From an uncultured delta proteobacterium (GTDB taxonomy: Bacteria > Desulfobacterota > Zymogenia > Zymogenales > Zymogenaceae), in assembly GCA_963735595.1 (NCBI GenBank), contig CAVTLK010000001.1, positions 227,008 to 291,007 of the forward strand: DNA of 64,000 nt, in the 5' to 3' direction. The notes beneath the pieces were generated by a model. The model had not been told where the DNA came from. It did no database searches and saw only the letters and a program-made list of their open reading frames with translations. Made by a program: the position numbers and the translations under genes. Shown here one piece after another: positions 230 to 23,773 of the stretch (positions are counted from its first letter, which is position 1; every line of letters starts with the position of its first letter).

Positions 230-314
230 TGTGAGTAGGATATGGACTATCAGATTTCACGCGAAGTGTTTTTTAACCTCGGCGGTCCCCACGGCGTGGT
301 GCGGCTGATCGTCT

Positions 315-2477
315 ATGCGATCGCGCTTCTCGTTATGGCGACGTTTATCTACTTGCTTGTCGAAGAAGATAAAGGTCTGGCGCCTGGGTCAAGCGGAAAT
401 GCGGACGGATAAGATAGTGACCCGGCTCTGGGGGATCGTACAGTTTGTCTTCCTCCAGGTAAAGATCCTCGGGGAGAAACTGCCCGGTATTACCCATTTC
501 TTCCTCTTCTGGGGTTTTGGGGTTCTCTTCGTCGGAACCGCCCTGATCGTTATACAGGAAGACTTTACGCTCCTCTTGTTTGACACCAGGTTCTGGTACG
601 GTACGTTCTATAAGTTTTATTCGTTGGCCCTGGACCTGTTTGGGCTTTTCGCCCTCATCGCAATTATCGTGTTTGCGGTGATTCGATATGTAGTCAGGCC
701 CAAGCGTCTGGATAACCAGGCGACCGACGCGATTTCCCTTGCCTTGATCTTCCTCATACTCGCTACCGGGTTCGTCAACGAGGGTCTCCGTATGGCGGCC
801 ACCGAAGTATCCACGAACCCAAAGGTTGCGGCTATGAGCGAGGTGCTGGCGGCGTCCGGTGACGAATTTCTCCGGGAAGCACCGGAGCTGACCGACGATC
901 AGCTCATTGAGAAGGCCAACAAGAACTCCGCCTTCAAGGATACCCCGGTCACCGAGGATAACGTCTATCTGGTTCGTAACGGCTACTACTATAACCCCGA
1001 GCTGGCGACGTGGTCTCCGGTTGGGTTGACGCTGGCAAACGTCTTCAACTCGACGATGAGTGAGGCCGGTATCCTGACCTTCCACAAGGTTAACTGGTGG
1101 GTGCATCTTCTTCTGGCGATGAGCTTCATCGTCTATCTCATGCTCGGCAAGCTCATGCACATCATCACGTCCAGCGTCAATGTCTTCTTCAGGAAGCTCG
1201 AGCCGAAGGGCGCGTTGAAGCCGATCGAAGACATGGAAAACGCGGAATGCTACGGGGTCGCGTACCCGGAGCAGTACACCTGGAAGCTCCTCATGGACGG
1301 GGATGCGTGCACTCGCTGCGGCCGCTGCCAGGACAACTGCCCCGCGTGGCTTTCCGACAAGCCGTTGTCGCCCAAGAAGATCGTCAACGACACCAACGAC
1401 AACCTTTACGAACGGGCGCCCCAGCTCTTCAAGAAAGTTCCGAGCGAAGAGGTCAAGTCCAAAGCCCTTATCGGTGAGGCGAATGAGCTGGACGCCGTTT
1501 GGTCGTGCACGACATGCCTAGCGTGCGTCGAAAACTGCCCCGTGGCGATAGACCAGGTGCAGAAGATCAACGAGATGCGGCGGTGCAAGGTCCTCATGGA
1601 AGGGGATATGACAAAGGAGCTGACGGCAGCCCTGCAGAACATGGAAAAGAATTCTAACCCCTACGGGTTTGGTTTCCATGAGCGGGGCAACTGGGCGGCC
1701 GATCTCCCGATAAAGACGCTGGCCGAGGACCCTGACGTCGAATACCTCTACTACGTGGGATGCGCCGGGTCATTTGACGACCGGTATAAGAAAGTGGCGA
1801 CGGCCTTCGTCAAGATCATGGAGCAGGCAGGGGTTAAGGTCGGCATGCTCGGCCAGGAAGAGGGATGCTGCGGTGACAGCGCCCGCAGGGCCGGAAACGA
1901 GTATCTCTTCGCGACGCTGGCGCAGGTTAACATCGAGACGTTCAAGAACTATAACGTCAAGAAGATCGTGACGACGTGTCCGCACGGGTATAATTGCCTG
2001 AAGAACGAATACCCGCAATTCGAGGGCGGAACGTTCGAAGTCTATCACTTCACGGAAGTGGTCCTCGATCTGATCAAACAGGGGCGCATCAAGCTCAATA
2101 AGCCCGTGGATGGGATCAGAGAGGTTGCGTATCACGATTCCTGCTTCCTGGGCCGATACAACGGGCTCTATGATCAGCCGAGACAGATCATCAAGTCGAT
2201 CCCTGAGATGAAGGTCGTGGAGTTTACGCGAAACAAGTCAAAGAGCTATTGCTGTGGGGCGGGAGGGGCCCGGATGTGGATGGAGGAAACCCTCGGCAAG
2301 CGCATAAACCATGTCAGGACTCAGGATGCGATAGACAAGGACTACAAAACGCTCAGCACTGCCTGCCCGTTCTGCCTGACGATGCTCTCGGACGGCATCA
2401 AGGAACTGGGTAAGGGAGAGTCGATGGAGACGTATGACGTCCTTGAACTGGTTATGAAATCCATGGATATAAAGTAA
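315..2477 (+). CDS. Membrane-anchored Fe-S oxidoreductase (HdrD/GlpC/DsrK-like, with a NarI-like polytopic N-terminus); the likely ETF-associated quinone-reducing partner
   Basis: 720 aa. The N-terminal ~300 aa are hydrophobic, with multiple predicted TM helices. There are two 4Fe-4S ferredoxin motifs (CTRCGRCQDNCP, CTTCLACVENCP) and two CCG cysteine-rich domains (EGCCGD; YCCGAGG...CPFC). It sits immediately downstream of etfA, as in the EtfAB-associated DUF224/HdrD-like oxidoreductases of syntrophs. The start is uncertain; M at ~399 is an alternative. Confidence 0.7.
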   Translation: MRSRFSLWRRLSTCLSKKIKVWRLGQAEMRTDKIVTRLWGIVQFVFLQVKILGEKLPGITHFFLFWGFGVLFVGTALIVIQEDFTLLLFDTRFWYGTFYKFYSLALDLFGLFALIAIIVFAVIRYVVRPKRLDNQATDAISLALIFLILATGFVNEGLRMAATEVSTNPKVAAMSEVLAASGDEFLREAPELTDDQLIEKANKNSAFKDTPVTEDNVYLVRNGYYYNPELATWSPVGLTLANVFNSTMSEAGILTFHKVNWWVHLLLAMSFIVYLMLGKLMHIITSSVNVFFRKLEPKGALKPIEDMENAECYGVAYPEQYTWKLLMDGDACTRCGRCQDNCPAWLSDKPLSPKKIVNDTNDNLYERAPQLFKKVPSEEVKSKALIGEANELDAVWSCTTCLACVENCPVAIDQVQKINEMRRCKVLMEGDMTKELTAALQNMEKNSNPYGFGFHERGNWAADLPIKTLAEDPDVEYLYYVGCAGSFDDRYKKVATAFVKIMEQAGVKVGMLGQEEGCCGDSARRAGNEYLFATLAQVNIETFKNYNVKKIVTTCPHGYNCLKNEYPQFEGGTFEVYHFTEVVLDLIKQGRIKLNKPVDGIREVAYHDSCFLGRYNGLYDQPRQIIKSIPEMKVVEFTRNKSKSYCCGAGGARMWMEETLGKRINHVRTQDAIDKDYKTLSTACPFCLTMLSDGIKELGKGESMETYDVLELVMKSMDIK

Positions 2478-2528: not shown

Positions 2529-2726
2529 TTTTTTACGCCGAGAGTACCCTCGCCGCTAACGTCGATAGGCCGTTTTATCCGAGGGGTATCTGTAAAACGC
2601 GAACGATTAGGCTCATCGGGCGCTCGGGAGAAAAAATCTGATGGACACGCCTTATTGTTGGCGATATAATGAAATATTACATATCAATAACCTCTTTTAT
2701 CCATAGACGAGCCTTCGGGGGTATGT

Positions 2727-4106
2727 ATGAAGAAAGAATATATCATGGCAATCGACCAGGGGACGACGGGAAGCCGGGTCTATATTTTCGATGATAAGGG
2801 CGACGTGGTGGGAAGCGCCTACAAGGAGTTTACCCAGATATATCCGAAACCGGGATGGGTGGAACATAACCCCCTGGAAATATATAAGAGTGTCCAGGAA
2901 ACGATGCTGGACTCGTGCGTCCGTGCCGAGATAGAGCTGGGTTCGGTCTTTGCTATCGGGATAACCAACCAGCGCGAAACGACGGTCCTCTGGGATAAAA
3001 AAACCGGTGAGCCGATCCACAACGCCATCGTCTGGCAATGCAGGCGTACGGCCGATATCTGCGACGACCTCAAGAAGAGGGGACATGAAGATCTCTTTAA
3101 GAAAAAGACCGGCCTGGTACTGGATGCCTACTTTTCGGGCACCAAGGTTAAGTGGATTCTCGATTACGTAAAGGGTGCAAGGGATCGGGCGCGCAAGGGT
3201 GAGATTCTGTTTGGAACCATCGACACATGGCTCATGTATAAACTTTCCGGCGGAATAATCCATGCCACCGATTTCACCAACGCCTCACGGACGCTCCTTT
3301 TCAACATCGAACAAAAGAAGTGGGATAGAGAGATTCTTGACATACTGGACATACCGGAGGAGATGCTGCCGGAGGTAAGGGATTCCGCCGGTCACTTCGG
3401 CAACACGGCATCACAACTCCCGATGGGCCGCGAGGTGCCGATCACCGGGGTGGCCGGAGACCAGCAGGCGGCACTCTTCGGGCAGGGATGCACGGCGCCG
3501 GGAACAGCAAAAAATACGTATGGTACGGGTTGCTTTCTCCTTTCGATCACGGACGGCTTGGTTCATTCCCATAACGGGCTCTTGACTACCATTGCCTGCT
3601 CGGAAACGGGGAAACCGGTATATGCCCTGGAGGGATCGGTCTTTATCGCCGGGGCAGTGGTGCAATGGCTCCGGGATGAGCTGGGCATGATTAAGAACTC
3701 TGCGGAGACGGAGGAACTGGCCCGCAAGGTGGAAGATACCAACGGCGTCTATATCGTTCCCGCCTTCGTGGGCCTTGGAGCCCCTTATTGGGATATGCAC
3801 GCCCGCGGCGGCATATTAGGGATTACCCGCGGGGCAAACAGGGCTCATATCGTAAGGGCGGCGTTGGAGTCGATTGCCTACCAGGCCAGGGATCTGGTTG
3901 AGGTAGTCAATGCAGAAAGCGGTAAGAAACTCTCGACACTTATGGTTGACGGTGGCGCCGCGAAGAATGACTTCCTCATGCAGTTTCAGGCCGATATGCT
4001 GGGCATTCCCGTCGATCGTCCGAAGATGACCGAGACGACGGCGGCGGGGGCGGCATTTCTTGCGGGTCTCGGGTCAAACTTCTGGGGATCGGCCCAGCGA
4101 GCTTAA
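2727..4106 (+). CDS. glpK: Glycerol kinase (FGGY family). The conserved last ~35 aa are encoded in another frame, so the full gene would run to the stop at 4213-4215.
   Basis: Reads [16 protein letters not shown]...GWVEHNP...[11 protein letters not shown]..., canonical GlpK over 459 aa. After the stop at 4104-4106, the +1 frame reads ...[39 protein letters not shown], which matches the GlpK C-terminus (compare E. coli ...DELQEKAVIEREFRP...YAGWKKAVKRA). The shift falls near the GGGG run at ~4088. Confidence 0.85.
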
Positions 4107-4318
4107 AAAATGCCGTAAGGTTGAAACGATCTTCAAACCCCGTATGGATAAAGGCAAACGGGACCTGCTCTATTCGGGATGGAAAGAAGCGGTTAAGAGG
4201 GTAAGCACCCGATAGGATGTGATTACCTGTTGGAAATTAACCGGGCACCTGGGCGCTGAAGGGCTGCCGCGCGCGTCACCCTTTTAGGCGCCGGCAGGAC
4301 GGGAGCAAGAGGAGACTA

Positions 4319-5527
4319 ATGGATTTTCATACCGAAGCGCTCGTCGTGGGAGGAGGCGCAACCGGCGCCGGCATCGCCCGTGACCTCGTCATGCGAGGCA
4401 TCGAGACGATCCTCATCGAGAAGGGGGACCTTGCGGCCGGCGCGACGGGCCGTTGCCATGGCCTCCTCCATTCGGGGGGGCGGTACGCGGTCAAGGATCA
4501 GGAATCGGCCCTCGAGTGTATCGCCGAGAATATGATCGTCAAGCAAATTGCCTCAAAGGCCGTCGAGGACACCGGCGGCCTTTTCGTGGGGATGTCCGAA
4601 GACGACGAGTCTTATGTGGATCGCTTTGTCTCGGCCTGTTATCGAGTCGGGATTGAGACCGTCAATCTCACCCCGTCACAGGCCAAGCGGATGGAGCCTA
4701 ATCTTTCGGATGATGCTACCGTCATTATTCGAGTTCCCGATGCGGCAGTGGACCCGTTCATGCTCACCGTGATGAACGTGGGTGATGCCGAGAAGCGGGG
4801 CGCCAGGATACTTCGCCATACCGAGCTTACCTGTATCATCGTCGAGCGTGGACGCGTTACGGCGGCGCTCGTGCGTGACAATCTGAGCGGGCAGACTCAT
4901 CGGATACGAACCCGGTACATCGTAAACGCGACCGGGGCATGGGCGGCACGGGTCGCGCGGCTTGCGGGGGCGAAAATAAACATGACGCTGTCAAAAGGCA
5001 GCCTTCTGGTCTTTAACCGAAGAATAAATAACTGCGTCATCAATCGCCTGCGTCCGCCGGGGGATGGGGATATAATCGTCCCCAATGAACCTACTTCCAT
5101 TATCGGCACGACATCGATTACGGTAAAAGACCCGGAGGACTTCCGTGTGACGGACGATGAAGTCGAGCTGATGATGCGTCAGGCGGGCCTCATGCTCCCG
5201 GAATCGGCCGAGGCCCGGGTGATCAGGGCTTACGCGGGAATACGCCCCCTGGCGGCGCCGGAGACGGGTTCCGGCCGCGACGTTTCGCGGACCTTTACGA
5301 TCATCGACCACAAGAAAACGAGCGACACGTCGGGTTTTCTCTCGATCATCGGAGGGAAGCTCACGACGTACCGGCTCATGGCGGAAAAAATCACCGACAT
5401 TATCGCAGGCGATCTCGGCGTGTCTATCCCGTGTAAAACCGCGTCGACGCCGATCCTGGGGACCGAGCGGCATGAGCACTACAGCCTCGAAGACAGGTTC
5501 AAGTCAATTGAGATCGTTCAAGGATGA
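4319..5527 (+). CDS. glpA: Anaerobic glycerol-3-phosphate dehydrogenase subunit A (FAD-dependent catalytic part)
   Basis: Reads MDFHTEALVVGGGATGAGIARDLVMRGIETILIEKGDLAAGATGRCHGLLHSGGRYA... (dinucleotide-binding fold). An SD (GGAG) precedes the ATG. The ORF stops at 5527 in an ATGA overlap with the next ORF. Confidence 0.85.
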   Translation: MDFHTEALVVGGGATGAGIARDLVMRGIETILIEKGDLAAGATGRCHGLLHSGGRYAVKDQESALECIAENMIVKQIASKAVEDTGGLFVGMSEDDESYVDRFVSACYRVGIETVNLTPSQAKRMEPNLSDDATVIIRVPDAAVDPFMLTVMNVGDAEKRGARILRHTELTCIIVERGRVTAALVRDNLSGQTHRIRTRYIVNATGAWAARVARLAGAKINMTLSKGSLLVFNRRINNCVINRLRPPGDGDIIVPNEPTSIIGTTSITVKDPEDFRVTDDEVELMMRQAGLMLPESAEARVIRAYAGIRPLAAPETGSGRDVSRTFTIIDHKKTSDTSGFLSIIGGKLTTYRLMAEKITDIIAGDLGVSIPCKTASTPILGTERHEHYSLEDRFKSIEIVQG

Positions 5528-5907
5528 CAAACCCTCCGGGAGTCGAAGAGATCGTCTGCGAGTGTGAGCTGGTCAGCAAGCGTGAGATCGTCTCGGTTGT
5601 CAAGGATACCGGCACGAAAGATCTCAATGATATCCGCGTGCGGACGCGGGTGGGGATGGGATCGTGTCAGGGTGGATTCTGCACCTATCGCCTGCTTGGG
5701 ATACTGCACGAATTACAGATGGTTCCCGATTACGAGGCAAATGAGATACTGATCGATTTTCTCGAAGGACGGTGGAAAGGGATCAAGCCGATCCTCTGGG
5801 GAGACCAGCTCCGGGAAGAACAGCTCATTGAAGGCATATATATGGGGATTTTCGCCCTCGATAAGGCGGCGATGCGTTCGGTGGCCAAGAAGGGGAGGTT
5901 GAAATGA
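5524..5907 (+). CDS. glpA: BFD-like [2Fe-2S]-binding domain, normally the C-terminus of GlpA. Here it is a separate ORF overlapping glpA by ATGA (a genuine split gene or a frameshift).
   Basis: Reads EEIVCECELVSKREIVSVV...GMGSCQGGFCTYRLLGIL, the BFD-like 2Fe-2S motif (C-x-C ... C-x2-C). It lies in a different frame from the 4319 ORF. Confidence 0.7.
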   Translation: MTNPPGVEEIVCECELVSKREIVSVVKDTGTKDLNDIRVRTRVGMGSCQGGFCTYRLLGILHELQMVPDYEANEILIDFLEGRWKGIKPILWGDQLREEQLIEGIYMGIFALDKAAMRSVAKKGRLK

Positions 5908-7157
5908 ACTACGATGTCGTAGTTATCGGGGCGGGTCTGTCCGGACTCATGGCGGCGGAGGCGGCGGCACAGCAGAAAAAGAGGGTGCTCGTCGTCTCTC
6001 GGGGTATGGGCATCATCACGATTTTCACCGGGACCATCGACGTTTTCGGGTATTGGCCGATCGACGAGGCGCGGCCCCTGGCTTCCCCGCTCGCGGGAAT
6101 CCAGCGGCTGATTCGTAAAGACGCGGAGCACCCGTATACTAAAATGGGTATTGATTCTATACGAAAAGGGATCGCGGCCTTTATCCAGACCGCCGGGAAA
6201 GGCGGCGTCCAGTACGTCGGCGATCTTTCCGAGAACATCCTTATCCCCACGGCGGTGGGAACGGTAAAGCCCACGTGCCTGGTTTCGTCCAGTATGGCCG
6301 GCGGCGACATGAAGAATGAACGCAACGTGTTGATTTGCGGCTTTTCGGGCCTCAGGGATTTCTATCCGGACTACATGGCCCATAACATATCGACGTTCGA
6401 GATGGAAGGGCTGACGCTCCCGCGGTTTCGCGCGCGGACCTGACGGTCGACATGGGCGACCGGACGTCGGGTCTCAACTGCCTGACGCTGGCCGGAAGGC
6501 TCGAGGATCAACGGCTGCTCAGGGCAATGACCGAGGAGGTCTATAGTCACGTCGAACAGGGAGAACGGGTAGCCTTTCCGGCGGTTCTCGGTATCAGGAA
6601 CAGCCGGGATATCCATAAAAGGTGGAACAGGCATGCGGCGTCCCCATATTCGAGACGCCGACGCTGCCGCCGTCGGTTCCGGGATACCGGCTGTATAAGT
6701 CACTCGAGGATACCCTCAGGGCAATGGGAGTCCACATGCTCGTCGGGTACGACGTCTACAACCCGAAGACATTCGGAAGGAGAATCGGCGAGATCAGTAT
6801 CGCGATGGGTAAGAGCGAGAAACGGGTTTCGGGACGCGCCTTTATCCTGGCAACGGGAGGGCTTGGTCGGCAAGGGAATCACCGGATCGTATGACAGCGC
6901 TCAAGGAGTCCGATTTTCGAACTTGCCGGTGGCGGCCCCGAAAAAGAGAACGGACTGGTTCAGAAAGAGACTATTTGATCCGGCGGGCCATCCGATCAAA
7001 CAGGGCGGGGATCGTCGTCGACGACCATCTGCGCCCGGTCGACAAAAAAGGAGAGCCGGTCTATGATAACCTGCTGGTGTGCGGAACCCAGCTCTTTGGC
7101 TTTGACGCCCTGAGGGAGAAATCGGGAGGGCGGAGTGGCCGTTTCATCGGGATATAA
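5904..7157 (+). pseudogene. glpB: Anaerobic glycerol-3-phosphate dehydrogenase subunit B, split over three frames (5904-6443, 6622-6894, 6891-7157)
   Basis: N-terminus MNYDVVVIGAGLSGLMAAEAAAQQKKRVLVVS (FAD fold) with SD GGGAGG. The middle piece PIFETPTLPPSVPGYRL...ATGGLGRQG and the C-terminal piece ...LLVCGTQLFGFDALREKSGG continue the GlpB family in frames 1 and 0. At least two frameshifts. Confidence 0.7.
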
Positions 7158-7186
7158 GGCGGGCGTCGAGGCGTCGAGGATGTAAC

Positions 7187-8407
7187 ATGGCTGTTATAAG
7201 ACGAGATATACACTATCCGGCCGATCAGTGCATAAATGTACGATTTGCGTTGAGCACTGCCCGGTGGTTAAGGTTACCGATAAATTCCTGGGCCCAAAAC
7301 AGGTCGGCCCCGATTTCCAGCGTTTCCGCAGTGAACAGGACGATACCCGCACGACGTATCGGTGGACTATTGCACCGGCTGCCGTATCTGCGACGTGGTC
7401 TGCCCGTCCGGGGTCAATATCTCGGAGCTCAACATACGGTCAAAGATAGCCGTCAGGGAAAAGGAAGGGATTCCGATTCGGGATACGCTGCTGTCTCACG
7501 CCTATATGTTCGGCCAGATCGCCAGCTTTACGGCGCCGGCGGCCAACGCCTTCCTGAAATTCCGTCCCTTCCGCTGGCTTTCGGACAAGATGCTGCACCT
7601 CGAAAAGAGCCTTCGCTATCCGTTCTATCAGCGCGAATCGTTCGAGAAAGTGGATCAGGGGCTATACGTTTAAGTCAGAGCGGAAGGTGGCCTATTTCTA
7701 CGGTTGTTTTACCAACTATAACGATCCGTCTGTCGGAAAGGCGGTCGTCAGGGTACTGGAAAAGAACGGTATTCAGACCGTTTTCCCGCGCAGGAATGCT
7801 GCGGGCTTCCGCTGCTGGGCAACGGAAACGTGCGGGAGGCGCGCAAACTGGCCCGCAGAAACCTGGCCGGACTCATGTCCGCGCTTGACGAGGGCCTCGA
7901 TATCATATACAGCTCCACGTCCTGCGGTATGATGATCCGGGACGACTATATCACGTATCTTGACCTGTACGAGGCCGAGCCGCTGTTTGACCGAATGAAA
8001 GAGGTCTCGGAGTACCTCTGGGAGCTTCACGAAAAGGGGGGGCTTAATACCGATTTCGAGGAGGTCCCGATGACAATGTCCTATCACATTCCGTGTCATT
8101 TGAGGTCTTTGGGCATCGGATTTCCGGCAATCGACCTGATGAACCTGATTCCGGGTCTTACCGTCAGGGAACTGGGAAGCTACTGCTGCGGGATGGCGGG
8201 GACCTACGGATTCAAGAGCGACAAGTACGAGATCACGAGGGCGATCGGGCAGGACCTCGCAAGGCGCTGGCCGAGACCGATGGCGAGTACGCCGCGTCGG
8301 ACTGCGAGGCCTGCCGGATGCAGATAGAAAATATGTCGGCCAAGAAGGCCATCCACCCCATCAAGACGCTCCTCTGGGCTTACGGGATTGAGCCTGTGGG
8401 GGTATAG
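7187..8407 (+). pseudogene. glpC: Anaerobic glycerol-3-phosphate dehydrogenase subunit C (Fe-S/CCG subunit), fragmented over at least five frame switches
   Basis: Pieces are: MAVIRRDIHYPADQCI (frame of 7187), then KCTICVEHCPVVKV (7228 frame), CTGCRICDVVCPSGV (7362), AYFYGCFTNYNDPSVGKAV (7687), SYHIPCHLRSLG...SYCCGMAGTYGF (7830), and CEACRMQIENMSAKKAIHPIKTLL (8093). Joined, they reproduce GlpC architecture (2x 4Fe-4S + 2x CCG). One shift sits in the A-run at ~7232-7236. Confidence 0.7.
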
Positions 8408-8439
8408 GCCGATGGGCTTGCCGAAAACGGGCCGAGGAC

Positions 8440-9236
8440 ATGGGGAACGCGCGCCCCATAGTGCATACGATCAGGCTCGGACTCCTCTTTCCCCTCTTTC
8501 CCGTGAATATCTATCTAATCGACGGGGACAACCCGACCCTCATAGACACCGGGCTCGATACCGACGTGGCGTGGCAGGGATTGGTTAGCGGGCTCTCGGC
8601 CGTCGGGCGAAGTCCGGGGGATATCAAACGGGTCGTCCTCACCCACGGCCACATCGACCACGTCGGGCTGTGCCCGAGGCTGCTCATGGAAGGGTCCCCC
8701 GAGATCATGATCCATGCGCGGGACGCCGGGCGCATTCGTTCGGACGTGGAGCACCTGGTCGGTCTCGTCGAGAAAAACGCCGCCAGGTTCAAGAAGATGG
8801 GTATCCCTGCCAGGGACATAGATCGGCTCTTCAGGAGCTATGTATCCGTGCTCAGACGATTTCACGTGGGACCGTTCCCGATAACGGAGCTTACCGACGG
8901 AGACCGTGATAGAGTGCGGGGACGCTGAACTCGCGGTGATTCATACACCGGGGCATACCGTCGGGGAGCGCCTGCTTTTTCCTGGATGCTATCCATACCC
9001 TCTTTTCGGGTGATCACGTCATGGAGGGTACATCGACCAACCCGCTGGCGGAGATGATCCCGGAAGAGGGGGTTGGCCTCATTCCGTATCTCGAATCGTT
9101 GAAAAAGGTCGATGACATCGGGGCGGAAACGATCCTGCCGGGCCACGGCGCCGTGATCAAACGTCCGGAGAAGTACATCTCGCAGATAGCGCTCCATCAC
9201 GATACGACGGCCCGGCGGATCAGGCAAATCGCTTGA
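8440..9236 (+). CDS. MBL-fold metallo-hydrolase with two apparent frameshifts (near 8900 and 8975)
   Basis: Reads LTHGHIDHVG (HxHxDH motif). After 8928 the frame moves to IECGDAELAVIHTPGHTVGERLLF, then to LDAIHTLFSGDHVMEGTSTNP...LPGHGAVI (ORF 9021-9236). Confidence 0.6.
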
Positions 9237-9479
9237 CACCGGGAGCATGACGCCGGCAGGGCTTGCCGGGACGGCTCTTTCCCGAACTCAAAGGAATTGC
9301 CGGAGGGAGCGCCGTGTTCGAGGTCTTTTGTCATCTCATGGAGCTTGTTGGGCGAGATGAGGCCGTTATGGAGGAACGGGAAGGCCTCTTCTCTTTCAGA
9401 CGGGATCGGTAAGCATAGATTATACCGGAAGTATGTGCCGCGCGGGGGATATGGGATCGCAATCGGCGACAAGAAACCG

Positions 9480-10568
9480 TCACGACCCCGCGGCGTCCAA
9501 ACGCATCCGCACCCCCATCCCCGGCCCCTCGGGGACGGGAATAACCCTTCGTTCAAAATCGACGGTAAAACCGTCGGCTATGTCGTGCTTCAAAAAGGCC
9601 GGGCCGATCGCCTCGCAGGCTATGATCCCCGGCTTTGCTGCGACAAGCTGCATCCCAGCGGCGCTGCCCAGCGACGATTCGAGCATCGACCCAACGATGG
9701 TGGGAATCCCGGCCGCCTCGGCAATCGCGTAGATCTTCGTGGCCCGCAGGAGCCCCCCGGATTTCATCAGCTTGATGTTGATAATATCGGCGGCCTTATT
9801 CGAAACGACCGCCAGCGCGTCCTCGGGGGAGAGGCACCCCTCGTCCACCATGATCGGGAAAGGGGAATGCCTTTTTACCTCGGCCAGGGCCGGCATGTCG
9901 CCCGCGGTCGTGGGTTGCTCGACCCACCGGACGGGATAGGCCCGGAGGCGCTCGAGGGCCGCCATGGCCGTCGGCGCGTCTTTCCATCCCTGGTTCACGT
10001 CCAGGAGGAGCCTCGCGCCGGGGGCCGCCGCCGAGATCAGGCGCACGCGGTCACAGTCCTGGTCGGGATTGCGTGCCTATCTTTACCTTGATGTCCCGAA
10101 AGCCGCCCCGGAAAAAACCTTCGGCATATCCGGCCATGACCTCGGGATCGTCCAGCGGGATCACCGGGTAAAACGCGATGGCCGACCTGCTCATCCCACC
10201 GAGAAGGCGATACGCGGGTACGCCGAGCGATTTTGCCCATCAGGTCAAAGAGCGCCATATCGAGCGCCGCCCACGCCGTCGGTGAGGCGGGGGCGGCCTT
10301 CTCGGCGAGTGCCATTATCGCCTCGATGTCAAAGGGGTCTCTGCCCGAGGAGGTCCGCCGGATATGGCGGAAAGGGCCGTCTTTACGTCCTGACGCGTTT
10401 CCCCGGTCACGTCGAAATCGACGGCACCCTCGCCGTATCCGATCGTCCCGTCATCCGTCGTCAGGGTCAGCAGGACGTAGTCAAGTGTTTCGAACGTCCC
10501 GTAGGAAACAACGAGCGGGACTACCGGGACGAGGTCAAGATCATCGACGTGTACCGACGCGATTTTCA
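9480..10568 (-). CDS. Enolase-superfamily enzyme (mandelate racemase/muconate lactonizing enzyme family; L-Ala-D/L-Glu epimerase or OSBS-like), frameshifted into three pieces
   Basis: N-terminus MKIASVHVDDLDLVPVVPLVVSYGTFETL (start 10568). Middle piece AWAALDMALFDLMGK. C-terminal barrel piece LLLDVNQGW...KLMKSGG...EQP (metal-binding DxN.W, K.K catalytic dyad). Confidence 0.6.
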
Positions 10569-10569
10569 T

Positions 10570-11754
10570 GAGGATGGTTTTACCTTTCCTGAATATCGCC
10601 GGTATCATCGGAAGGACGGCAAGGTTGATCAGCGCAAGGATCACAAACGTCCACCGGAATCCGACGTTGTCCACCAGAACTCCCGCCAGCGACTGTCCCA
10701 CGGCGATGCCGAGATTGCCTATGGCCATGAAGACCGCAAACATGGTTGCGGCAATCCGCGGGTTCGAAAAATCCATGCTCAGGGCGAAATAGACGGTTTC
10801 GTAATAGCCGAAGCCCATTCCGAACAAGAAGAGGAGCACGTAGGCCGTGTTCAGGTGATGGGCGCCGGCGATCGGAAGAATGGTCGCGGTTGAGATAAGC
10901 CAGCGCGATAACGAGGGAGTAGCGTGTGCCCGAGCCTATCGATGAACGCGCCGCCGAGTGCTGCGCCCGCTCCCGTCCCGATTCCGAAGAGGGCGGTCAC
11001 AAATCCTACGTTGAGCATCGAGATATCCGAGTCCCTCCTTAAGGAAGGGATTGGCGATACCCTCGACGTTATAGATGACCAGGGGATAGAGAAAGCCGAC
11101 CAGCATGAAGAAGAAGACGGGAAGGGATGCAAACGACTTGAACGCGGAAAACGAGAAGCTCACTTCGTCTTTTCGCGGCACCTCCGGTGGAACGAAGAAA
11201 TAGTAGATAACCGGGAGAATGGTAATGGCGCCGATGCCGAAGAAGACCGGCCGCCATCCGTAGTACTCGGTAACGTATCCGATCGACGCCGCCGCCAGCA
11301 CCATTCCAACGGCCCTGCCGCCCACCATGATTCCCTGAACGAATCCCCGTTTGTCTTTAGGAGTCCTGTCCAGGGCGTATCCGTCGGTTGCGGTATCAAA
11401 CGTGGCCATGCCGAGGGGAGCAAGGAAGAGGACCGCCGTAAACAGGACGGGGGTCTTAACGGGGGACAAGAACGGGACAAGGCATATGATAGTTCCCTCA
11501 AGAAGCAGGCCGACAATGATGAGGGGCTTTCGATAGCCCAGACCGAAGGGATTGACCGAATCGGAGAAGAGCCCGATAAAGACCTTGATGATCAGCGGGA
11601 TGAGCGCGATGGAACTGATAAGGCCGATCGTCGTGAAAGAAAGATCGAAGGTTCTCAGATAAATGATATTGAATCCGGTAAAATAGGTAATGAGGATACC
11701 CTCGAGGAAATAGATGAGCGAGTAGAATCCGCCGAGAAGATATTTATGTTCCAT
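10570..11754 (-). CDS. MFS transporter, frameshifted (pieces 11754-10936, 11132-10851, 10839-~10570)
   Basis: Twelve-TM-like hydrophobic profile. Reads GYRKPLIIVGLL..., DRTPKDKRGFVQG, then the C-terminal TMs. The 3' end runs into the epimerase start with no in-frame stop, which implies a shifted true stop. SD AAGGAG precedes the ATG at 11754. Confidence 0.55.
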
Positions 11755-11909
11755 GGTCTAACTCCTTGGTGAGAGATGAAAGCCGGGGGAAACCGTTATG
11801 AATGGGATTCCCCCGGCTCACTCGTGAAACACATAGGCAGGCCGTCCCGGGCAATTTATCTGCCGGGCAGGCCCGCGCACGGACGTGCCTTACCGGCACG
11901 TACACTCCT

Positions 11910-12625
11910 CTATTTCTTCTTAAGCCACATCTCCCAGAGGGGCACGAAGAAGAAGAAGAGGAAAGCGATACCGAGGAGCGCACCGCCGACTACGGAGAAA
12001 TAGGCAAAGGCCGCCGCAGTCTTGGCAAGCCACCACGAAAAGACGTCCATCACGATACCGGCATAGGCCGTGAGAACGAGCAGGATCTTCCAGCGGTCTT
12101 TGACGGTGGTCGCGATAAAGATCAGAGACAGGAGAAAGAACATCACCCCATGGGAGATGAGATGGGTATGAGAGAGGGTGCCGAGACGGCCGGGGGAAAC
12201 GCCGGTTGAAACCGCAACGTATTTCATGACTTCGTCATAGGTCGTCAACGGGGAACCGGACTCGGTGCCGTCTTTTGAGTGGCACATGGTGCAGCTTTTC
12301 TTCAATATCGGGACGACGGTCTCTTCGTACGACGTCTCTTCGGCACCGGCCCGATCCACTCTATAACGGCGTTCTTATCGCCGTCCGACGAGAAATAGGT
12401 CGCCATAGACCCGAGGCTCTTGTCCTCGAGGGCGGTTCCCTCGCGGTTGCCGTAGTAGGTGATGACGATATCGTTCATCGAGAGGCCCGGTTTGGCATCG
12501 GCATTTTCGTGGCAGATGTAAATGGTAAACAGGGCAAAGATATAACCGAGCCCCATTACGCAGAGGAAAACGGTAATCAGCAGCTTTGCCGGAATTCCAA
12601 GCTTAACAAGTCCTTTTTCAAACAT
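11910..12625 (-). CDS. Membrane protein with a single CXXCH heme-c motif plus a His-rich 3-TM C-terminus, with a frameshift near 12300-12360
   Basis: N-terminal piece MFEKGLVKLGIPAKLLITVFLCVMGLGYIFALF... (TM1). Second piece ...ILKKSCTMCHSKDG... followed by TM helices carrying SHTHLISHG. Neither piece is an independent ORF. Confidence 0.45.
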
Positions 12626-12723
12626 GGTGTGTCCTTTCCTCCAAGAGAGTGAAGTTCGGAGTGAGGGTATCCTGTTCTGCGGTAGATCAAAAGGAGATAC
12701 GGCGGCGGCCGATCAAGGCCCGA

Positions 12724-12970
12724 TTAACCGCCGCCGATAATCTGAAGAATCCTGATTTCGTCGCCGTCCGATCAGCACGTGGTCAGGCGTCACCCGGGAA
12801 CCGTTTATCATCGCGACAAACGGCATGCCCGCCCGGATGACTCCGGATTCCTTGAGGGCCTTTTTGAGTCTGGCGCCCTCATTAAGGTTATAGGTTCCGC
12901 CCCTGATGCGGGCCGCCAACGGGCCGTACGGTTTAACGGTTACGGTGATCTTTTTTCTCGAAAACAGCAT
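12724..12970 (-). CDS. ThiS/MoaD-family sulfur-carrier protein; the C-terminal GGG tail is recovered only after a 1-nt frame correction
   Basis: Reads ITVTVKPYGPLAARIRGGTYNLNEGARLKKALKESGV...VAMINGSRVTPDHVLIG. Shifted by one, the tail reads DGDEIRILQIIGGG* (TAA at 12724-12726), the canonical beta-grasp carrier ending in Gly-Gly. Confidence 0.6.
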
Positions 12971-13027
12971 GTCGGAAATCCGATAGAGATGATGAATAGG
13001 GTATTGCCGTACTAATTGACCGTGCCG

Positions 13028-13426
13028 CTATTTTATTGTGGGCCATACTCCCCTTGTGCCGGAGAACGTTGCGCCGGAGATCGCGGTTCCATAGCCGAAG
13101 GTGCCGACGAACGAGTCGCCCGCCTCATTCAGGGTGACAATACCACGGCCCGAGCCGAGTGGGCCCTCCCAGTCAAATTCGAATTTCGATCCCCTGACGG
13201 CTCCCCGGATCGTACGAAACTTCAGGGGAGAGGGGAAGGTTCCGGAGGCGTAACATTCATTCTGGGTGATCTCAACGGGACCGGCATCGGTGTTCCAGGT
13301 TCCAACGAAGCTCGCGCAGAGTGTCTTAGGCGGGACGCTCGGCGGCACCCGGACGCAGCCGGCGACTGCAATAATCGAAAGACCGACTATGATTGCCACG
13401 ACAAGAACTCTTGAGTAGCTTTTCAT
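13028..13426 (-). CDS. Hypothetical lipoprotein
   Basis: Signal peptide plus lipobox (MKSYSRVLVVAIIVGLSIIAVAGC). Intact ORF with no recognisable family. Confidence 0.5.
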   Translation of the reverse strand: MKSYSRVLVVAIIVGLSIIAVAGCVRVPPSVPPKTLCASFVGTWNTDAGPVEITQNECYASGTFPSPLKFRTIRGAVRGSKFEFDWEGPLGSGRGIVTLNEAGDSFVGTFGYGTAISGATFSGTRGVWPTIK

Positions 13427-13536
13427 CTGTTGCCTCCTGTTACATCCATAGATGTCGCTACTATACCACATCCGTATCTACCGTGCAACGGCTTCGGAGA
13501 CATCCGGCCGTTTCGGGATCGGGGACGGCCGTCCAA

Positions 13537-15748
13537 TTATGGTTTGAGCGTTTTGTACACGAAGCTCTCCCATCGGCGTATATCCGAAGTATAGTAGGGT
13601 GAGTAACGGCGGTCCGAGGGACCGCCGGCAATGTCCGTGTGAATTGCCGTTTCGCCGAGGTCGGCAATTATCCGATACGACGGGGCGAAGCTCGTCAATC
13701 TACCTCCGGTCCTGAATATCTGCCCCTGGACGATGGTGGCCCGGTTGCCGGGAAGTTCGACGGGACCGAAATCAAAGCCAAGTATACGGGGGAGCTTACC
13801 GCCGAAGAAGAGGTTTGCCATGAGTACCTTATGAGTCCTGCCATACGCAACGGCCGGTCCCTTCAGGCCGCGGTGGATTGCCTTCTGGTACAGCTCCTGG
13901 CGGTTCTTATCTCCAAACCAGAGCGATTTCTTGGCCAGCAGGATGCGGTCAAAATTAATATAGAAGTCGTTGAAAAGCCCCGTCTCGGCGAGACAATAGT
14001 CGATAACGTCCCTGCCCATTTCGAGCTCGCCGAAGACGAGATCGAGGAGCGACGTATATACCCGTTCGAACAGGGTAGCTCCCAGCGACTCGGTGTCGTA
14101 ACAAAGGTCCCAGTCACGCAGGATTTTCCCGTTGGGTGTGTCGGGCAGGAGCGGCTCGATAATCTTCATGAAGTATTGAGCCTGGAGGGAATAGAGGTCG
14201 CTACTGGATCTTCTTCATCTCCTCCACGTCCAGCGGTGTCCGCTTTTTCAGGAGGTCTCTTATCCGGTCGCCGCGATAGCTTCCCATCGGAAGGTTCTGA
14301 ACGACAACCTTGGAAAGGTGTGAGAGATCTTCGTTGGCAGTGGCTACGTAACCCTCGGGAGGATTATAGCTCCGCGGGTAGCTCGTCGGCGGAACTGATG
14401 CCCTTCCACTGGTGAGACGGATCCCAGCCGAGGTAGGGCAGTAGACCCGAAGTACCTTTTTTCCGCTTCGGGAAGTTCCCGCTCATCTGATAGCCGATGT
14501 TACCGGCGGTATCGGCGGCAACCCAGTTGAAGGCCGCAAAGCTCAGACCCGCAAAACGGCTCATCGCTTCCTTGACGTTCTTTGACCTGGGGACTTTGAG
14601 GATACTTTCCATAGACTGTGCGACGTTTCCGCGACGGCCCGACCAGGCAAACGAGAGCCAGTAGCCGTCGGCGGTCGGTTCTCCCTCGAGTACCCCATTA
14701 TCGCTCTCGTAAAATCGCAGGGTGATAGGCGCCTTCTTCTTGGGCCGGATGACCTCCTCGCGAACGGCAAAGGGGACCCGCTTCTTACCGCGCAGGCATT
14801 TCTTGTTTACGACATCCTCGATAAAATAGTCGATCGTATCCATAAAACCGTACGTGACCGACCACGCCAGGGTTATTGGAGCGGCCAAGGACAACCGCCG
14901 GTATGCCGGGGAAGGTCGCCCCCATAACGTAAAAGTCTCCCGATACCAGTACGGCCTCGTACCATAACGGCGGGCAGGCGGTTGACTTCGAGGTGCGGGT
15001 CGCCGCAGAGGATAGGCTTCTTTGACCTGGAGCGTGCGCCGGACACGGCCCAGTTATTACTGGCCGAAAATCGGGTAAGGACCGATAGCCATTTGACGGA
15101 CTCGGGCACCACGGGATTGACAAGGTTGACCTGCTTAATGATTTCGGTGAGGGACTCTTTCGGGCGTTCCATCGAGGGGAACAGCTCCTTGAGCTTTTCT
15201 ACCGACACCCCCTTTCGGATCATCTGGATGATACCCTTTTCCATTTCTCCCTGGGATTGGGTAAGGCCGATAAATCCGATAATCCTGGACATGAGGACGA
15301 TATCCTCCGGCGTCCACGGGTCGGGCTTGTACCCAACCAGTTTGAACTCGAAGGGCACGCCCGAATCGGCGATTGCCTTGTTTGCGCCGGCGCAGTAGGC
15401 GCTCAGGACGGCCAGTGTCTCCTTGTTCATCTTCTTTAATTCTTGTTTGGCGTCACCGCCGAGGGAAATCCATCTCATATACGTATCGGCGGCGATCAGC
15501 TCTTCGTCGGCCTTTAGCTTTTCGGAGGCCCGCCCCTGGCCGATGAGCTTTACGAGCCACATCGCAAGCTGCCGGTCGGTTCCATGCATATAGCCCAGCC
15601 CCCAGTAGAGGTCGATCTCGTGATCGGCACTGATATGGGGCACTCCGCCGGCGATACGCTTGATGGTGACGTTCCCCTTGGTTCCGCGAAGAACCGTCTC
15701 GACATCAGTTATCTTCATGATTACTCCAACTATGGATAATATAGACAT
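13537..15748 (-). pseudogene. Penicillin amidase / acyl-homoserine-lactone acylase family Ntn hydrolase (~735 aa), fragmented by at least three frameshifts
   Basis: Alpha-subunit piece 15748-14873 (...HEIDLYWGLGYMHGTDRQLAMW...). Beta-subunit nucleophile SNNWAVSG. Further family pieces are at 15123-14785 (GDFYVMGATFPGIPAVVLGRSNNPGV), 14894-14364 and 14169-13537. Confidence 0.65.
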
Positions 15749-15942
15749 TATGTACCATTACGGGAATCGTATTTCAAGAGATTAAATAGGATTTCTGTAA
15801 ATACGCGCAGCATTCATACGCGTAAAACGGTCGGCGGTTCCTCCGTCAGTATCTCTTCTCAAATAAAGTTCAGGCGCAAGAATCGGATAGTCAGAATGGC
15901 CGCTCCCATATAGTATATAATAAAACTGTTGAGGTATGAGCT

Positions 15943-17049
15943 ATGACGATATCAAGCGAGCATCCGCGCTGGTGGCGTGCCGTACTGGCACGGGATGACA
16001 ATTTTGACGATGTCTTTGTTTACGGCGTCCGCTCGACGGGAGTCTACTGCCGCCCGTCATGCGGGGCAAGGAAGCCGCGCGAGGATCAGGTGGTGTTCTT
16101 TGCCACGGCGGACGGGGCGCGGGCGGCCGGCTTTCGACCGTGTCGCCGGTGCCTGCCGGACGATACCTCCGGCCGGGATATACGGGGAGAGATGGTCAGG
16201 CTATCCCGCTTCATTGAAGACTACGACTCGCCGGACCGGCCGCTTACCCTGGCCGTTATGAGCGACTATATGAAGCTCAGTCCCTCGCATCTGCAGCGCA
16301 CGTTTACGAGGATAATGGGCGTGAGCCCCAGGAAGTACGCGGAGATGATGCGTCTCAAACTGCTCAAGACGCTGGTTAGGAACGGGCAACGGGTAACCGA
16401 CGCGCTGTACGAGGCGGGATACGGTTCCAGCAGCAGGGTTTACGAGGGCTCGGCCCATCGTCTGGGAATGACGCCCGGTGCGTATCGAAAGGGCGGTGCG
16501 GGTATGCGCATCCACTATACCGTTGTCGATTGCATTCTCGGGCGTCTCCTGGTCGGGGCTACCGAAAAGGGCGTTTCCGCGGTGCTGATCGGGCGGTCCG
16601 ATCGGGAGCTTAAAAACGCCCTCCGGGAGGAATACCCGTCGGCAGTGATCGTTCAGGATTCGTCCGGACTCGAGGAATATAGCGGGGCGCTTTTAGACTA
16701 TCTGAGGGATGGCCGGTCGGTACTCGACCTTCCCCTGGACATTCGTGTCACGGCTTTCCAGGCGCGGGTCTACGAGGAGCTGAAGAAGATCACCCGAGGA
16801 TCGGTACGAACCTACAGTCAGATCGCCGAGGGGATCGGAATGCCGGGGGCGGCCAGGGCGGTGGGCAACGCCTGCGCCGCGAACCCAACGGCGCTCGTGA
16901 TTCCGTGCCACCGGGTCGTAACAAAGAGTGGGGAACCGGGCGGCTACCGCTGGGGAGTGGAACGGAAGAAAGCGCTGCTGGCCATGGAAAGACGATCGGA
17001 CCGGCGATCGGACCGGGACGAGTTGTTCGAGCAGGGAGCGGGAATTTAG
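15943..17049 (+). CDS. ada: Bifunctional Ada: methylphosphotriester-DNA methyltransferase with AraC-type regulator, fused to O6-methylguanine-DNA methyltransferase
   Basis: N-terminal Zn Cys4 (YCRPSCGAR...FRPCRRC), AraC HTH, and C-terminal MGMT active site IPCHRVV. Intact, 368 aa. Confidence 0.85.
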   Translation: MTISSEHPRWWRAVLARDDNFDDVFVYGVRSTGVYCRPSCGARKPREDQVVFFATADGARAAGFRPCRRCLPDDTSGRDIRGEMVRLSRFIEDYDSPDRPLTLAVMSDYMKLSPSHLQRTFTRIMGVSPRKYAEMMRLKLLKTLVRNGQRVTDALYEAGYGSSSRVYEGSAHRLGMTPGAYRKGGAGMRIHYTVVDCILGRLLVGATEKGVSAVLIGRSDRELKNALREEYPSAVIVQDSSGLEEYSGALLDYLRDGRSVLDLPLDIRVTAFQARVYEELKKITRGSVRTYSQIAEGIGMPGAARAVGNACAANPTALVIPCHRVVTKSGEPGGYRWGVERKKALLAMERRSDRRSDRDELFEQGAGI

Positions 17050-17275
17050 GGCTACAGGAAACGTGGTCTATACCGTATACAACGCGATGCGGCGCGATGA
17101 GGAGCTAATCGATCTGTGACACGTCCGTAAGTAGGGTGGGTGCAGAACGTTGAGTTCACCAAGGGCGAATCCATTGAATGCCGGGAATCATTACTGCCGC
17201 CTTACCTTTCGACCGTTAAACGGCGCTTAGTCCATATAGGTAATCCATTCTTTGCCAGCTGAGCGGATAAGCGTC

Positions 17276-17545
17276 TTACCGAAGGGCGGATGAATCGCCG
17301 TCCGACATCTCCTCCATATAGACTATCTGCTCCTTGTTGACCAGGACAGTCCGCTCCTTCTGCCCCTGGACTGTGGCGCAGCTGAGGACCAGGAAACGGT
17401 TCTTCCCCTTGATCATCAGATCGCTGATTCGATGCATCGGCTCACTTTCGCTGTTGAGGTTGACGGTTCCCCGGATGGTGCTCCCATCGGTCATCCTCAC
17501 CTGGACATACCTGTCAACCGTGGTGACCTTTAGTGAATTGGGCAT
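17276..17545 (-). CDS. Hypothetical small protein (89 aa)
   Basis: Intact ORF between ada and the SDR gene. No motif recognised. Confidence 0.35.
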   Translation of the reverse strand: MPNSLKVTTVDRYVQVRMTDGSTIRGTVNLNSESEPMHRISDLMIKGKNRFLVLSCATVQGQKERTVLVNKEQIVYMEEMSDGDSSALR

Positions 17546-17736
17546 CGCGTCCTCCTTTACAGAATTTAATTGTTATATAATACTATCATTTGTGCAACAA
17601 ATCAATGCCGGTTTGAGACACGCACCGTTTCGACCGTTGCCGTGATGAATGATTGACTTTTTAAAGGTACTCGATTATCCTTGCCGGGCGATGCTGAATA
17701 TACCCCTTTTTTAACTATCAGAGGCGCGAGGAAATT

Positions 17737-18564
17737 ATGAAGAGGCATGATTTTAGAGACAAGAAGGTCCTGATAACGGGAGCTGCCGGCGGGATTGGGC
17801 GGGAGCTTTCGGCTCAATTCGCCAAGCGGGGGGCGCGGCTCCTTCTGGCGGGGCTTCCGGCGGAGAGAAAATCGCTGACGGAACTGGCGGCCCGGCTCAC
17901 CAAGGAGTACGGAGTCCAGGCGCATCTGTTTACGGTCGATCTCTCTTTGCGTGGCGGGCCGGAAAAGCTATATGCATCGGTCAAGAAGGCGGTCGGGGAT
18001 ATCTATGCGCTGGTCAATAACGCCGGCGCCGTTGCCTACGGTAGCGTGTGGGAGGTTCCGTGGGAGCCGCAGGAGAAGACCGTTACCGTTAATCTTCTCG
18101 TCCCCCTCAGGCTTATGCACCTGTTCATCCCGGACATGGTAAAGAAGGGAGAGGGTGTTGTCTTCAACACCGCCTCCGTGCAGGCGTTTCAGCCCACGCC
18201 GTACCATTCGGTCTACTGCGCCACGAAGGCGGGCATACAGATGTTGTCGGAGGGGATTCGGGCGGAACTCACGGGCACCGGCGTGTCGGTCTGTACGCTC
18301 AACCCGCCCTATACCAATACGGCCATGCTCAGGACAAAGGGATTCCCCAGGGAGATACGTTTTTACCGGATCAGCGGGATTAAGGAACCGGCGTGGATCG
18401 CACGAAAGGCGCTCGGCGCGTTCGAGAAAGACAAGTTCATGTACGTCCCCGGCCTCTGGACGAAGTTCATTCACCTGGTTCTGATTCGGTTCTCACCCAG
18501 ACGACTCGTTGATTTTGTGACGTACCACCTGCTCAAGGGGACGAGGAAGAGCGGCGTGTATTAA
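17737..18564 (+). CDS. Short-chain dehydrogenase/reductase (SDR) family oxidoreductase
   Basis: Reads TGAAGGIGRELS (Rossmann motif), ...NNAG..., YCATKAG (YxxxK). An SD precedes the start. Confidence 0.85.
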   Translation: MKRHDFRDKKVLITGAAGGIGRELSAQFAKRGARLLLAGLPAERKSLTELAARLTKEYGVQAHLFTVDLSLRGGPEKLYASVKKAVGDIYALVNNAGAVAYGSVWEVPWEPQEKTVTVNLLVPLRLMHLFIPDMVKKGEGVVFNTASVQAFQPTPYHSVYCATKAGIQMLSEGIRAELTGTGVSVCTLNPPYTNTAMLRTKGFPREIRFYRISGIKEPAWIARKALGAFEKDKFMYVPGLWTKFIHLVLIRFSPRRLVDFVTYHLLKGTRKSGVY

Positions 18565-18604
18565 GGACGTAACCGCGCGTGAAGAAACGGCCTTTCTGAA
18601 ACCG

Positions 18605-21751: not shown

Positions 21752-21825
21752 AATAGGTGTCGGTACGATAGCCGGGACGGCTCGGCCATCGGCGCGCTTC
21801 CCGATAGAACAGACGCCGACGGTAT

Positions 21826-23727: not shown

Positions 23728-23773
23728 GCCGATCCCTTAGGAAGATGAAAAACGTTACCTGTTCCTATCTTTG

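Follow-up and report, generated by a model that had tools for sequence, protein, structure and literature searches.

In programmed frameshifting and at phase-variable loci there is one conserved site per gene, accompanied by a slippery motif or a repeat tract. Bacterial pseudogenes show a deletional bias and carry indels of mixed sizes. In long-read consensus sequences, single-base indels truncate conserved genes at a frequency that is set by read depth and by polishing (PMC9262707; PMC12313526), and the errors of Nanopore consensus are described as chiefly homopolymer indels (PMC9262707). Here we compare with these systems a block of ten frameshifted genes in a 64,000-nucleotide stretch of DNA (the window). 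Judged from the sequence and its relatives, the frameshifts in the block are very probably consensus errors in the deposited sequence and not mutations in the organism.

Extent of the frameshifted block

A four-way MAFFT alignment of window positions 1-15560 with the relatives L001, L002 and L003 yielded 46 indel events that are private to the window. Thirty-nine of them, each of 1-2 bp, fall between 4093 and 14873, and an extra one-base insertion at ~4093-4098, whose placement in the alignment is ambiguous, brings the total for this 10.8-kb block to about 40, at a density of 3.2-3.7 per kb. When frameshifts were scored gene by gene with the intact L002 genes as the frame reference, about 35 of the block events were found to shift the frame, and they are distributed across ten consecutive genes from glpK to a penicillin amidase gene (Table 1). 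All ten genes named in the original prediction of a frameshift-dense block are therefore affected; its figure of at least 20 frame switches holds as a minimum but is an undercount. In the ORF lists, the region 4.1-15.7 kb consists of pieces of 60-400 aa and the region 15.9-52.3 kb of long unbroken ORFs.

The 35 events in the 10.8 kb of the block compare with three in the remaining 53.2 kb (at 362, 53618 and 55385), a 57-fold concentration (binomial P = 4e-24) that bears out the earlier argument for a non-uniform indel process. The 38.7 kb from 14874 to 53617 should hold about 126 events at the block rate, and none was detected. This stretch, correctly described beforehand as clean from ada to the gene for a 543-aa OMP, also contains an SDR gene, a GH106 ORF of 1048 aa, the V-type ATPase operon, the genes for EF-G and a TPR protein, acs, and paralogues of UDP-glucose dehydrogenase. 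The proteins of L008 match the window end to end in a single frame at 15.9-37.4 kb, and at 36-64 kb gene lengths and Pfam coverage agree with those of relatives, with the exception of two FecR genes. Two isolated shifts had been missed earlier, one upstream of the block in the CCG/4Fe-4S gene (744 aa; position 362) and one in a FecR gene (53618). The shift that had been placed near 55386 is real, but it is a G between two A's at 55385 and not an event in a GGG run.

No direct or inverted repeats of at least 30 nt were found near 4 kb or 15 kb, and a collapsed repeat or assembly junction at the block edges was rejected for that reason. Neither GC nor skew has a break at these edges. Clustering of errors within the block was dropped as unconvincing: a hand count gave seven inter-event gaps of less than 35 bp, where about five are expected.

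Table 1. Coordinates of the block, of the genes that carry frameshifts and of the frameshift-free stretch, in window positions
Feature	Position	Strand	Observations
CCG/4Fe-4S cluster oxidoreductase	242..2477	+	744 aa in relatives; single G inserted at 362, outside the dense block, severs the N-terminus (ORF pieces 242-412 and 315-2477)
glpK, glycerol kinase (FGGY)	2715..4214	+	499 aa in L002; 1 frameshift; ORF in window ends at 4106 (459 aa), after the 1-bp insertion at ~4093-4098
Putative error block	4093..14873		First to last window-private small indel; 31 insertions, 9 deletions, plus 3-bp deletion at 8397
glpA (DAO and BFD-like 2Fe-2S domain)	4319..5907	+	528 aa in L002; 2 insertions, 5520 and 5536
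glpB (FAD_binding_2)	5904..7185	+	425 aa in L002; 8 private frameshifts: 6436, 6617, 6865, 6897, 6909, 6925, 6998, 7131
glpC (CCG and 4Fe-4S)	7187..8407	+	407 aa in L002; 5 private frameshifts: 7236, 7343-7344 (2 bp), 7650, 7784, 8267; also 3-bp in-frame deletion at 8397
Metallo-beta-lactamase-fold (MBL) hydrolase	8412..9475	+	351 aa in L002; 4 private insertions: 8907, 8960, 9229, 9271
Enolase-superfamily (MR_MLE) epimerase or cycloisomerase	9484..10569	-	360 aa in L002; 5 private frameshifts: 9490, 10071, 10235, 10347, 10358
MFS transporter	10566..11754	-	394 aa in L002; 4 private insertions: 10576, 10899, 10920, 11025
Membrane protein with CTMCH motif	11910..12625	-	238 aa, no Pfam hit; 1 private deletion, 12348
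ThiS/MoaD-like small protein	12713..12970	-	87 aa ending GGG in L002; C-terminal tail lost in window via 2 indels, 12719 and 12772
Penicillin-amidase-family protein (acylase)	13532..15748	-	3 frameshifting private insertions: 14204, 14399, 14873; further private insertion at 13535, adjoining the stop; 5' 875 nt (14873-15748) clean
Frameshift-free stretch, 38.7 kb	14874..53617		No detectable frameshift
FecR-domain gene, first of tandem pair	52442..54167	+	581 aa in L010; isolated T insertion at 53618
FecR-domain gene, second of tandem pair	54263..56051	+	579 aa in L010; isolated G insertion at 55385

Close relatives, repaired genes and selection

Comparison with close relatives had been proposed as a check on the block, and it found the indels to be private to the window: they are absent from L001, L002 and L003. 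L002, an Illumina 'k87' assembly, has unbroken versions of all ten genes, and in L001, which has 91% DNA identity to the window, glpC, the epimerase gene and the MFS transporter gene are intact. Once the private indels are removed, every gene in the block translates at full length, and the repaired proteins are 81-93% identical to those of L002 (70% in the case of the MBL hydrolase). The repaired frames contain no internal stops except in the C-terminal tail of the MBL hydrolase, a feature common to L001 and L003, and the lesions of the block include no nonsense codon and no deletion of more than 3 bp. A metagenome scan for an independent, near-identical contig covering the block yielded no more than two distant hits and one contig of 1.3 kb with 87% identity.

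Substitutions on the window branch are distributed over codon positions 1, 2 and 3 of the block genes as 26/19/122 (chi-square P = 1e-26), so that 73% are at the third position. The raw N/S ratio is 0.46 in the block and 0.33 in the clean flanks, a difference that is not significant (Fisher P = 0.22). The third-position bias and the similarity in N/S to the clean flanks show that selection was active until essentially the present: purifying selection on the block genes has not weakened relative to those flanks. The relaxed selection that had been predicted for the case of real frameshifts was thus not seen. At most ~68 neutral substitutions could be hidden in the block; the ratio of indels to substitutions would then be at least 0.56, which far exceeds what is known of natural pseudogene decay. 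The idea that substitution errors, too, are in excess in the block was rejected: substitutions private to the window are, if anything, scarcer there.

The indel spectrum and the origin of the frameshifts

All of the frameshifting events in the block are of 1-2 bp, with a ratio of insertions to deletions of 31:9 (a test of insertion bias on 30:10 gives P = 0.002), and each window indel is one base gained or lost amid well-aligned, conserved coding sequence. The original prediction had remarked that several shifts sit in short homopolymers. This is true of a small minority, since 3 of the 39 events lie in same-base runs of three or more; 24 of the 39 have no identical adjoining base. No common motif of the kind left by a methylation-type systematic error was evident on inspection of the contexts of the inserted bases. 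Adjacent shifts share the same sign, as do three +1 events in the 28 bp from 6897 to 6925, and therefore do not compensate one another. Both L001 and L003 are Nanopore-only MAGs made with metaFlye and one round of Medaka (PMC12313526). Eight coding frameshifts, seven of them insertions and most of them outside homopolymers, occur in 21 kb of L001, and the racemase and EF-G genes are broken in the L003 contig. The errors in these two MAGs are of the same kind as those in the block, at about one-tenth of the density, and the spectrum of the block matches theirs, in which the private frameshifts are of 1 bp and arise mostly from insertions outside homopolymers. An association with homopolymers is not a necessary feature because these known Nanopore MAGs are also without it.

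A locally poor assembly consensus had been ranked first among the possible causes and deserves that place, now on firmer grounds: the genes are intact in relatives, they are under purifying selection and the spectrum is Nanopore-like. The most likely source of the window is the long-read metagenome-assembled genome of a relative of Candidatus Zymogenaceae. Its consensus is good overall, at ~0.06 frameshifts per kb. The consensus at 4093-14873 would have been called from too few or too mixed reads, or missed by polishing, the outcome being ~40 spurious indels of 1-2 bp, mostly single inserted bases outside homopolymers. In the real genome, glpK, glpABC and the genes for the MBL hydrolase, epimerase, MFS transporter, membrane protein, ThiS-like protein and penicillin amidase would be intact and functional. 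Candidate local causes include a dip in depth, a mixture of strains and a gap in polishing. The default chunk of Medaka is ~10 kb, and the size of the block makes a single failed chunk, leaving an unpolished draft, an attractive possibility. There are counterpoints to a consensus artefact: homopolymer indels are expected from the literature and the block has mostly non-homopolymer insertions, and nothing was found in the sequence to explain the choice of this particular 10.8 kb.

The consensus may also be chimeric, the block being drawn from a rarer co-occurring strain or from a strain mixture, such that its substitutions would be real and its indels poorly called. This would be a sub-case of the artefact and not an alternative to it, and we regard it as possible but somewhat doubtful. 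Private substitutions of the window and of L001 stand at 74:50 in the flanks and at 70:130 inside the block. Change points estimated by maximum likelihood fall at 5.1-10.2 kb with the L001 recombinant segments masked and at 6.3-13.0 kb without masking, and the observed value was reached in 0 of 200 permutations; in places within the block, the window and L001 reach an identity of 0.95-0.98. However, neither pair of change points falls at the block edges (4093 and 14873), and recombinant segments in L001 (6.5-7.5 and 10.5-13 kb) account for part of the signal. The shift in the substitution ratio hints at a different history for the block core, one that is incompletely explained. Some unusual regional history of this sort, to which the adjoining L001 recombinant segments also point, and the presence of frameshifts in ten neighbouring genes could be taken to favour a real and very recent pseudogenisation, in which a ten-gene glycerol/amino-acid catabolic block was inactivated in the population by small indels. 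We consider this very unlikely, in keeping with the lower rank that it had been given: the repaired genes have neither nonsense codons nor large deletions, selection on them is undiminished by the measures of third-position substitution and N/S, and there is no gene decay elsewhere in the window. Moreover, the indel-to-substitution ratio and the 3:1 insertion bias contradict the known pattern of bacterial pseudogenes, and similar indels are scattered as errors in the Nanopore MAGs of relatives.

Real indels could also have arisen in a very recent, confined burst of single-base insertion mutagenesis, for example in a patch of ~10 kb left by error-prone repair or replication restart, which put all ten adjacent catabolic genes out of action in a natural population. 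The chance of this is slighter still, and the burst would need to have happened too recently for the relaxation of selection to show in the substitutions. Programmed recoding, by which ribosomal frameshifting, transcriptional slippage or phase-variable simple repeats would keep the genes expressed, has nothing in its favour beyond the presence of the frameshifts, and its probability is negligible. It was already refuted by sites that are unconserved and too numerous, the latter as had been argued from the start: there are ~35 of them, with up to eight per gene, and none is conserved in any relative. Few are in homopolymer runs, they share no motif or tract, and neighbouring shifts have the same sign.

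Practical meaning and known systems

The value of recognising a consensus error here is practical and not biological. Annotation of the contig would either mistake the ten genes for pseudogenes or overlook the anaerobic glycerol-3-phosphate pathway (glpK, glpABC) and the catabolic genes beside it. Errors in long-read MAGs can be strongly patchy, and genome-wide quality scores such as coding density or the IDEEL score may look fine although a single operon has been wrecked. Reads are not required to distinguish an artefact from a pseudogene: close relatives serve to polarise private substitutions, the separating criteria being the codon-position bias of those substitutions and nonsense codons in the repaired frames. 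Read mapping, which the original prediction had held to be needed for the exclusion of pseudogenisation, is dispensable in this respect: comparative evidence separates artefact from biology.

The block shares with programmed +1/-1 frameshifting (prfB, dnaX, IS3-family transposases) and with phase-variable loci an ORF that continues in another frame, but its sites are many, unconserved and without a motif. It resembles the pseudogene blocks of reductive genomes, such as those of Mycobacterium leprae and recent host-restricted lineages, in having neighbouring genes that are frameshifted; unlike them, it has no nonsense mutations, deletions of more than 3 bp, relaxed selection or deletional bias, and its surroundings are intact. 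The likeness to the long-read (Nanopore or PacBio) consensus errors that are measured by the IDEEL test lies in single-base indels that truncate conserved genes. Textbook errors of this type are genome-wide and concentrated in homopolymers, whereas those of the window are mostly outside homopolymers and are gathered in one 10.8-kb stretch of an otherwise clean contig.

Distribution of frameshifts along the window

Scanning species-representative genomes with a 402-aa GlpA fragment gave three syntenic relatives of the window. L001, a Microflora Danica Nanopore MAG, has 91.4% DNA identity to window 1-15550; L002, a Candidatus Zymogenaceae MAG assembled from short reads, judging by its contig name ('k87_'), has ~82%, and L003, a second Microflora Danica MAG, ~78%. 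In a single metagenome scan, no independent assembly covering the block was closer than these. The four-way MAFFT alignment of these sequences contains 46 window-private indel events; 39 events of 1-2 bp lie at 4214-14873 and a further one-base insertion lies at ~4093-4098. The block total is 31 insertions and 9 deletions, besides which there is one in-frame 3-bp deletion at 8397. Alignment excerpts show well-conserved surroundings at each event, the difference being a single base gained or lost; at 6897, 6909 and 6925 three separate bases are inserted within a 28-bp span.

Each of the ten block genes is a single ORF in L002, and with its reading frames as reference ~35 events shift the frame, hitting every gene (Table). 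The original prediction, which had counted at least 20 frame switches in ten genes, is borne out; its gene names agree with Pfam and, as it held for nearly every gene between glpK and the acylase, the ORF lists break 4.1-15.7 kb into pieces of ~60-400 aa on both strands.

Table. Features of the window, protein lengths and frameshifting events
Feature	Window position	Length (aa)	Frameshifting events
CCG/4Fe-4S oxidoreductase	242-412 / 315-2477 (ORF pieces)	744 (relatives)	G inserted at 362
GlpK		499 (L002)	1
GlpA		528 (L002)	2
GlpB		425 (L002)	8
GlpC		407 (L002)	5
MBL-fold hydrolase		351 (L002)	4
MR_MLE epimerase		360 (L002)	5
MFS transporter		394 (L002)	4
Membrane protein		238 (L002)	1
ThiS-like protein		87 (L002)	2
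Penicillin amidase (acylase)		>606 (L002, cut by locus end)	3
V/A-type ATPase operon	25394-34653
UDP-glucose/GDP-mannose dehydrogenase	47601-48938	445
UDP-glucose/GDP-mannose dehydrogenase	49020-50354	444
FecR-domain gene 1		581 (L010)	T inserted at 53618
FecR-domain gene 2		579 (L010)	G inserted at 55385

Three coding frameshifts of the same kind lie outside the block. The window-private one at 362, which is beyond the interval originally reported (2727-15748), costs the oxidoreductase gene upstream of glpK its first ~40 codons. The other two disrupt tandem FecR-domain genes; they are isolated, neither is in a homopolymer, and they represent block-type error at background density. An intergenic poly-C (~8 C) at 212-224, the sole long homopolymer among the indel sites, adjoins a window-private 2-bp insertion and has a 2-bp deletion in L003.

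No frameshifts were found at 14874-53617 (38.7 kb) from ORF lengths, Pfam and alignments to relatives; at the block rate ~126 would be expected in this indel-free stretch. The earlier claim of ~36 kb without frameshifts therefore holds, 15.9-52.3 kb being an unbroken series of long ORFs. Every protein of L008, the continuation of the L003 contig that is collinear with window 15.5-37.6 kb, aligned end to end in a single frame; the sole split in that comparison, in the racemase, belongs to L008, and the window's racemase ORF spans the Pfam model. Across 36-64 kb, ORF lengths agree with those of a 43-kb JGI contig and of L010 (a JGI contig with 92.9% identity to window 45.9-57.2 kb) and Pfam models are fully covered, the exception being the two FecR genes; at 37.6-45.9 kb and 57.2-64 kb this cleanness is judged by gene length and Pfam coverage alone, without nucleotide alignment. 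The density of coding frameshifts is 3.2 per kb in the block versus 0.06 per kb in the rest of the window (57-fold; binomial P = 4e-24).

The V/A-type ATPase operon is complete (subunits I, c, E, C, F, A, B and D, preceded by a 104-aa ORF), intact, and collinear with L008 and L009. The adjacent dehydrogenase paralogues share ~67-70% DNA identity, and the pair is kept in L010 and in the P0116 contig.

Artefact or pseudogenes

Four independent lines of evidence point to the frameshifts as an artefact. Recent pseudogenisation of the block, which would make them real, is very improbable, being contradicted by the repaired genes, the substitutions, the indel spectrum and the intact surroundings of the block. 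When the private indels are deleted, full-length proteins result, the MBL hydrolase with 70% and the others with 81-93% identity to L002. In-frame stops in the repaired frames are confined to the C-terminal tail of the MBL hydrolase and recur there in L001 and L003, so ~35 frameshifts stand against zero nonsense mutations. In that tail (window 8412-9475, last ~20 codons) frame and length differ between L002 and the group of window, L001 and L003, in what looks like a genuine lineage difference and not an error. Selection, too, is still visible. Polarised with L002, window-branch substitutions in the block fall 26/19/122 at codon positions 1/2/3 (P = 1e-26 against equality), and raw N/S on this branch is 0.46 in the block versus 0.33 in clean flanking genes (Fisher P = 0.22), with 0.31 on the L001 branch; the relaxed selection originally expected of real frameshifts did not appear, since the codon-position bias is strong and N/S does not differ from the flanks. 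These counts could conceal at most ~68 neutral substitutions, and the indel:substitution ratio would therefore be at least 0.56 if the indels were real, far in excess of that known for bacterial pseudogenes.

The indel spectrum is that of errors. Bacterial mutation is deletion-biased with mixed indel sizes; the block has 1-2 bp events only, with insertions outnumbering deletions 3:1. Events that lie close together share one sign, so none offsets its neighbour. Contact with an identical base is absent in 24 of the 39 events; the suggestion that several shifts sit in short homopolymers survives for the 3 of 39 in runs of three or more and fails for the rest, as it does for the G at 55385. The number of sites, their absence from all relatives and the lack of an evident tract or motif exclude both phase variation and programmed frameshifting, the latter already dismissed in the original prediction because of the site count. 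Sound repaired genes, visible selection, the error spectrum and a signature shared with Nanopore MAGs place assembly error ahead of pseudogenisation, the order that the original prediction had preferred.

Proposed origin of the block

The indels are private, localised and non-biological in pattern. The window most likely belongs to a long-read MAG whose consensus, good in general, would over ~10.8 kb have been built from reads that were too sparse or too mixed, or left unpolished. We found no repeats flanking the block, unremarkable composition at it and no excess of private substitutions within it; the failure is therefore confined to indels, as single-molecule consensus errors would give.

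Window-private and L001-private substitutions stand at 74:50 in the flanks versus 70:130 inside the block core, with total distance about equal, and the change-point statistic for this ratio was matched by 0 of 200 permutations. This flip hints at strain mixture or a haplotype switch as the local cause. With change points at 5.1-10.2 kb (6.3-13.0 kb if unmasked), the flip does not line up with the block edges, and recombinant L001 segments at 6.5-7.5 and 10.5-13 kb feed into the signal; either a switch of haplotype during assembly or past recombination could lie behind the flip at 5.1-13 kb. A failed polishing chunk would also fit, as one refilled from the draft matches the ~10 kb block size under Medaka defaults.

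At L001 ~17.2-18.2 kb (window 11.5-12.5 kb) and at window 6.5-7.5 kb, the identity of L001 to the window falls to 73-81%; in the same segments the window has 86-91% identity to L002, the more distant relative, and site patterns uniting window and L002 exceed the one expected from the species tree. These observations suggest that lineages have recombined across glpB/glpC and the membrane-protein/MFS region.

Comparison with long-read assemblies

L001 and L003 were assembled from Nanopore reads alone, with metaFlye followed by one round of Medaka, and the catalogue's authors, who checked for Nanopore-associated errors, noted that coding density was low in some MAGs of lower coverage (PMC12313526). 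Consensus errors depend on depth, near-finished consensus requiring ~40-fold R10.4 coverage (PMC9262707). Over 21 kb, L001 carries 8 frameshifts of its own in coding sequence (~2204, 4765, 5386, 9702, 11111, 12731, 17955 and 17993; ~0.3-0.4 per kb); 7 are insertions, and homopolymers are mostly not involved. L003/L008 have disrupted glpK, glpA, glpB, racemase and EF-G genes (EF-G in L008). Private 1-bp frameshifts are a general problem of deposited Nanopore-only MAGs, and the window indels share the signature of these known examples, which carry it at lower density.

The block is a caution for annotation and an example of how comparative analysis alone can tell artefact from pseudogene. It is not a biological feature but a familiar long-read problem, resembling known long-read assembly errors in that indels fragment the gene calls. 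It differs from the textbook form in that its errors are very patchy and are mostly non-homopolymer insertions, the latter being equally true of the two known Nanopore MAGs.
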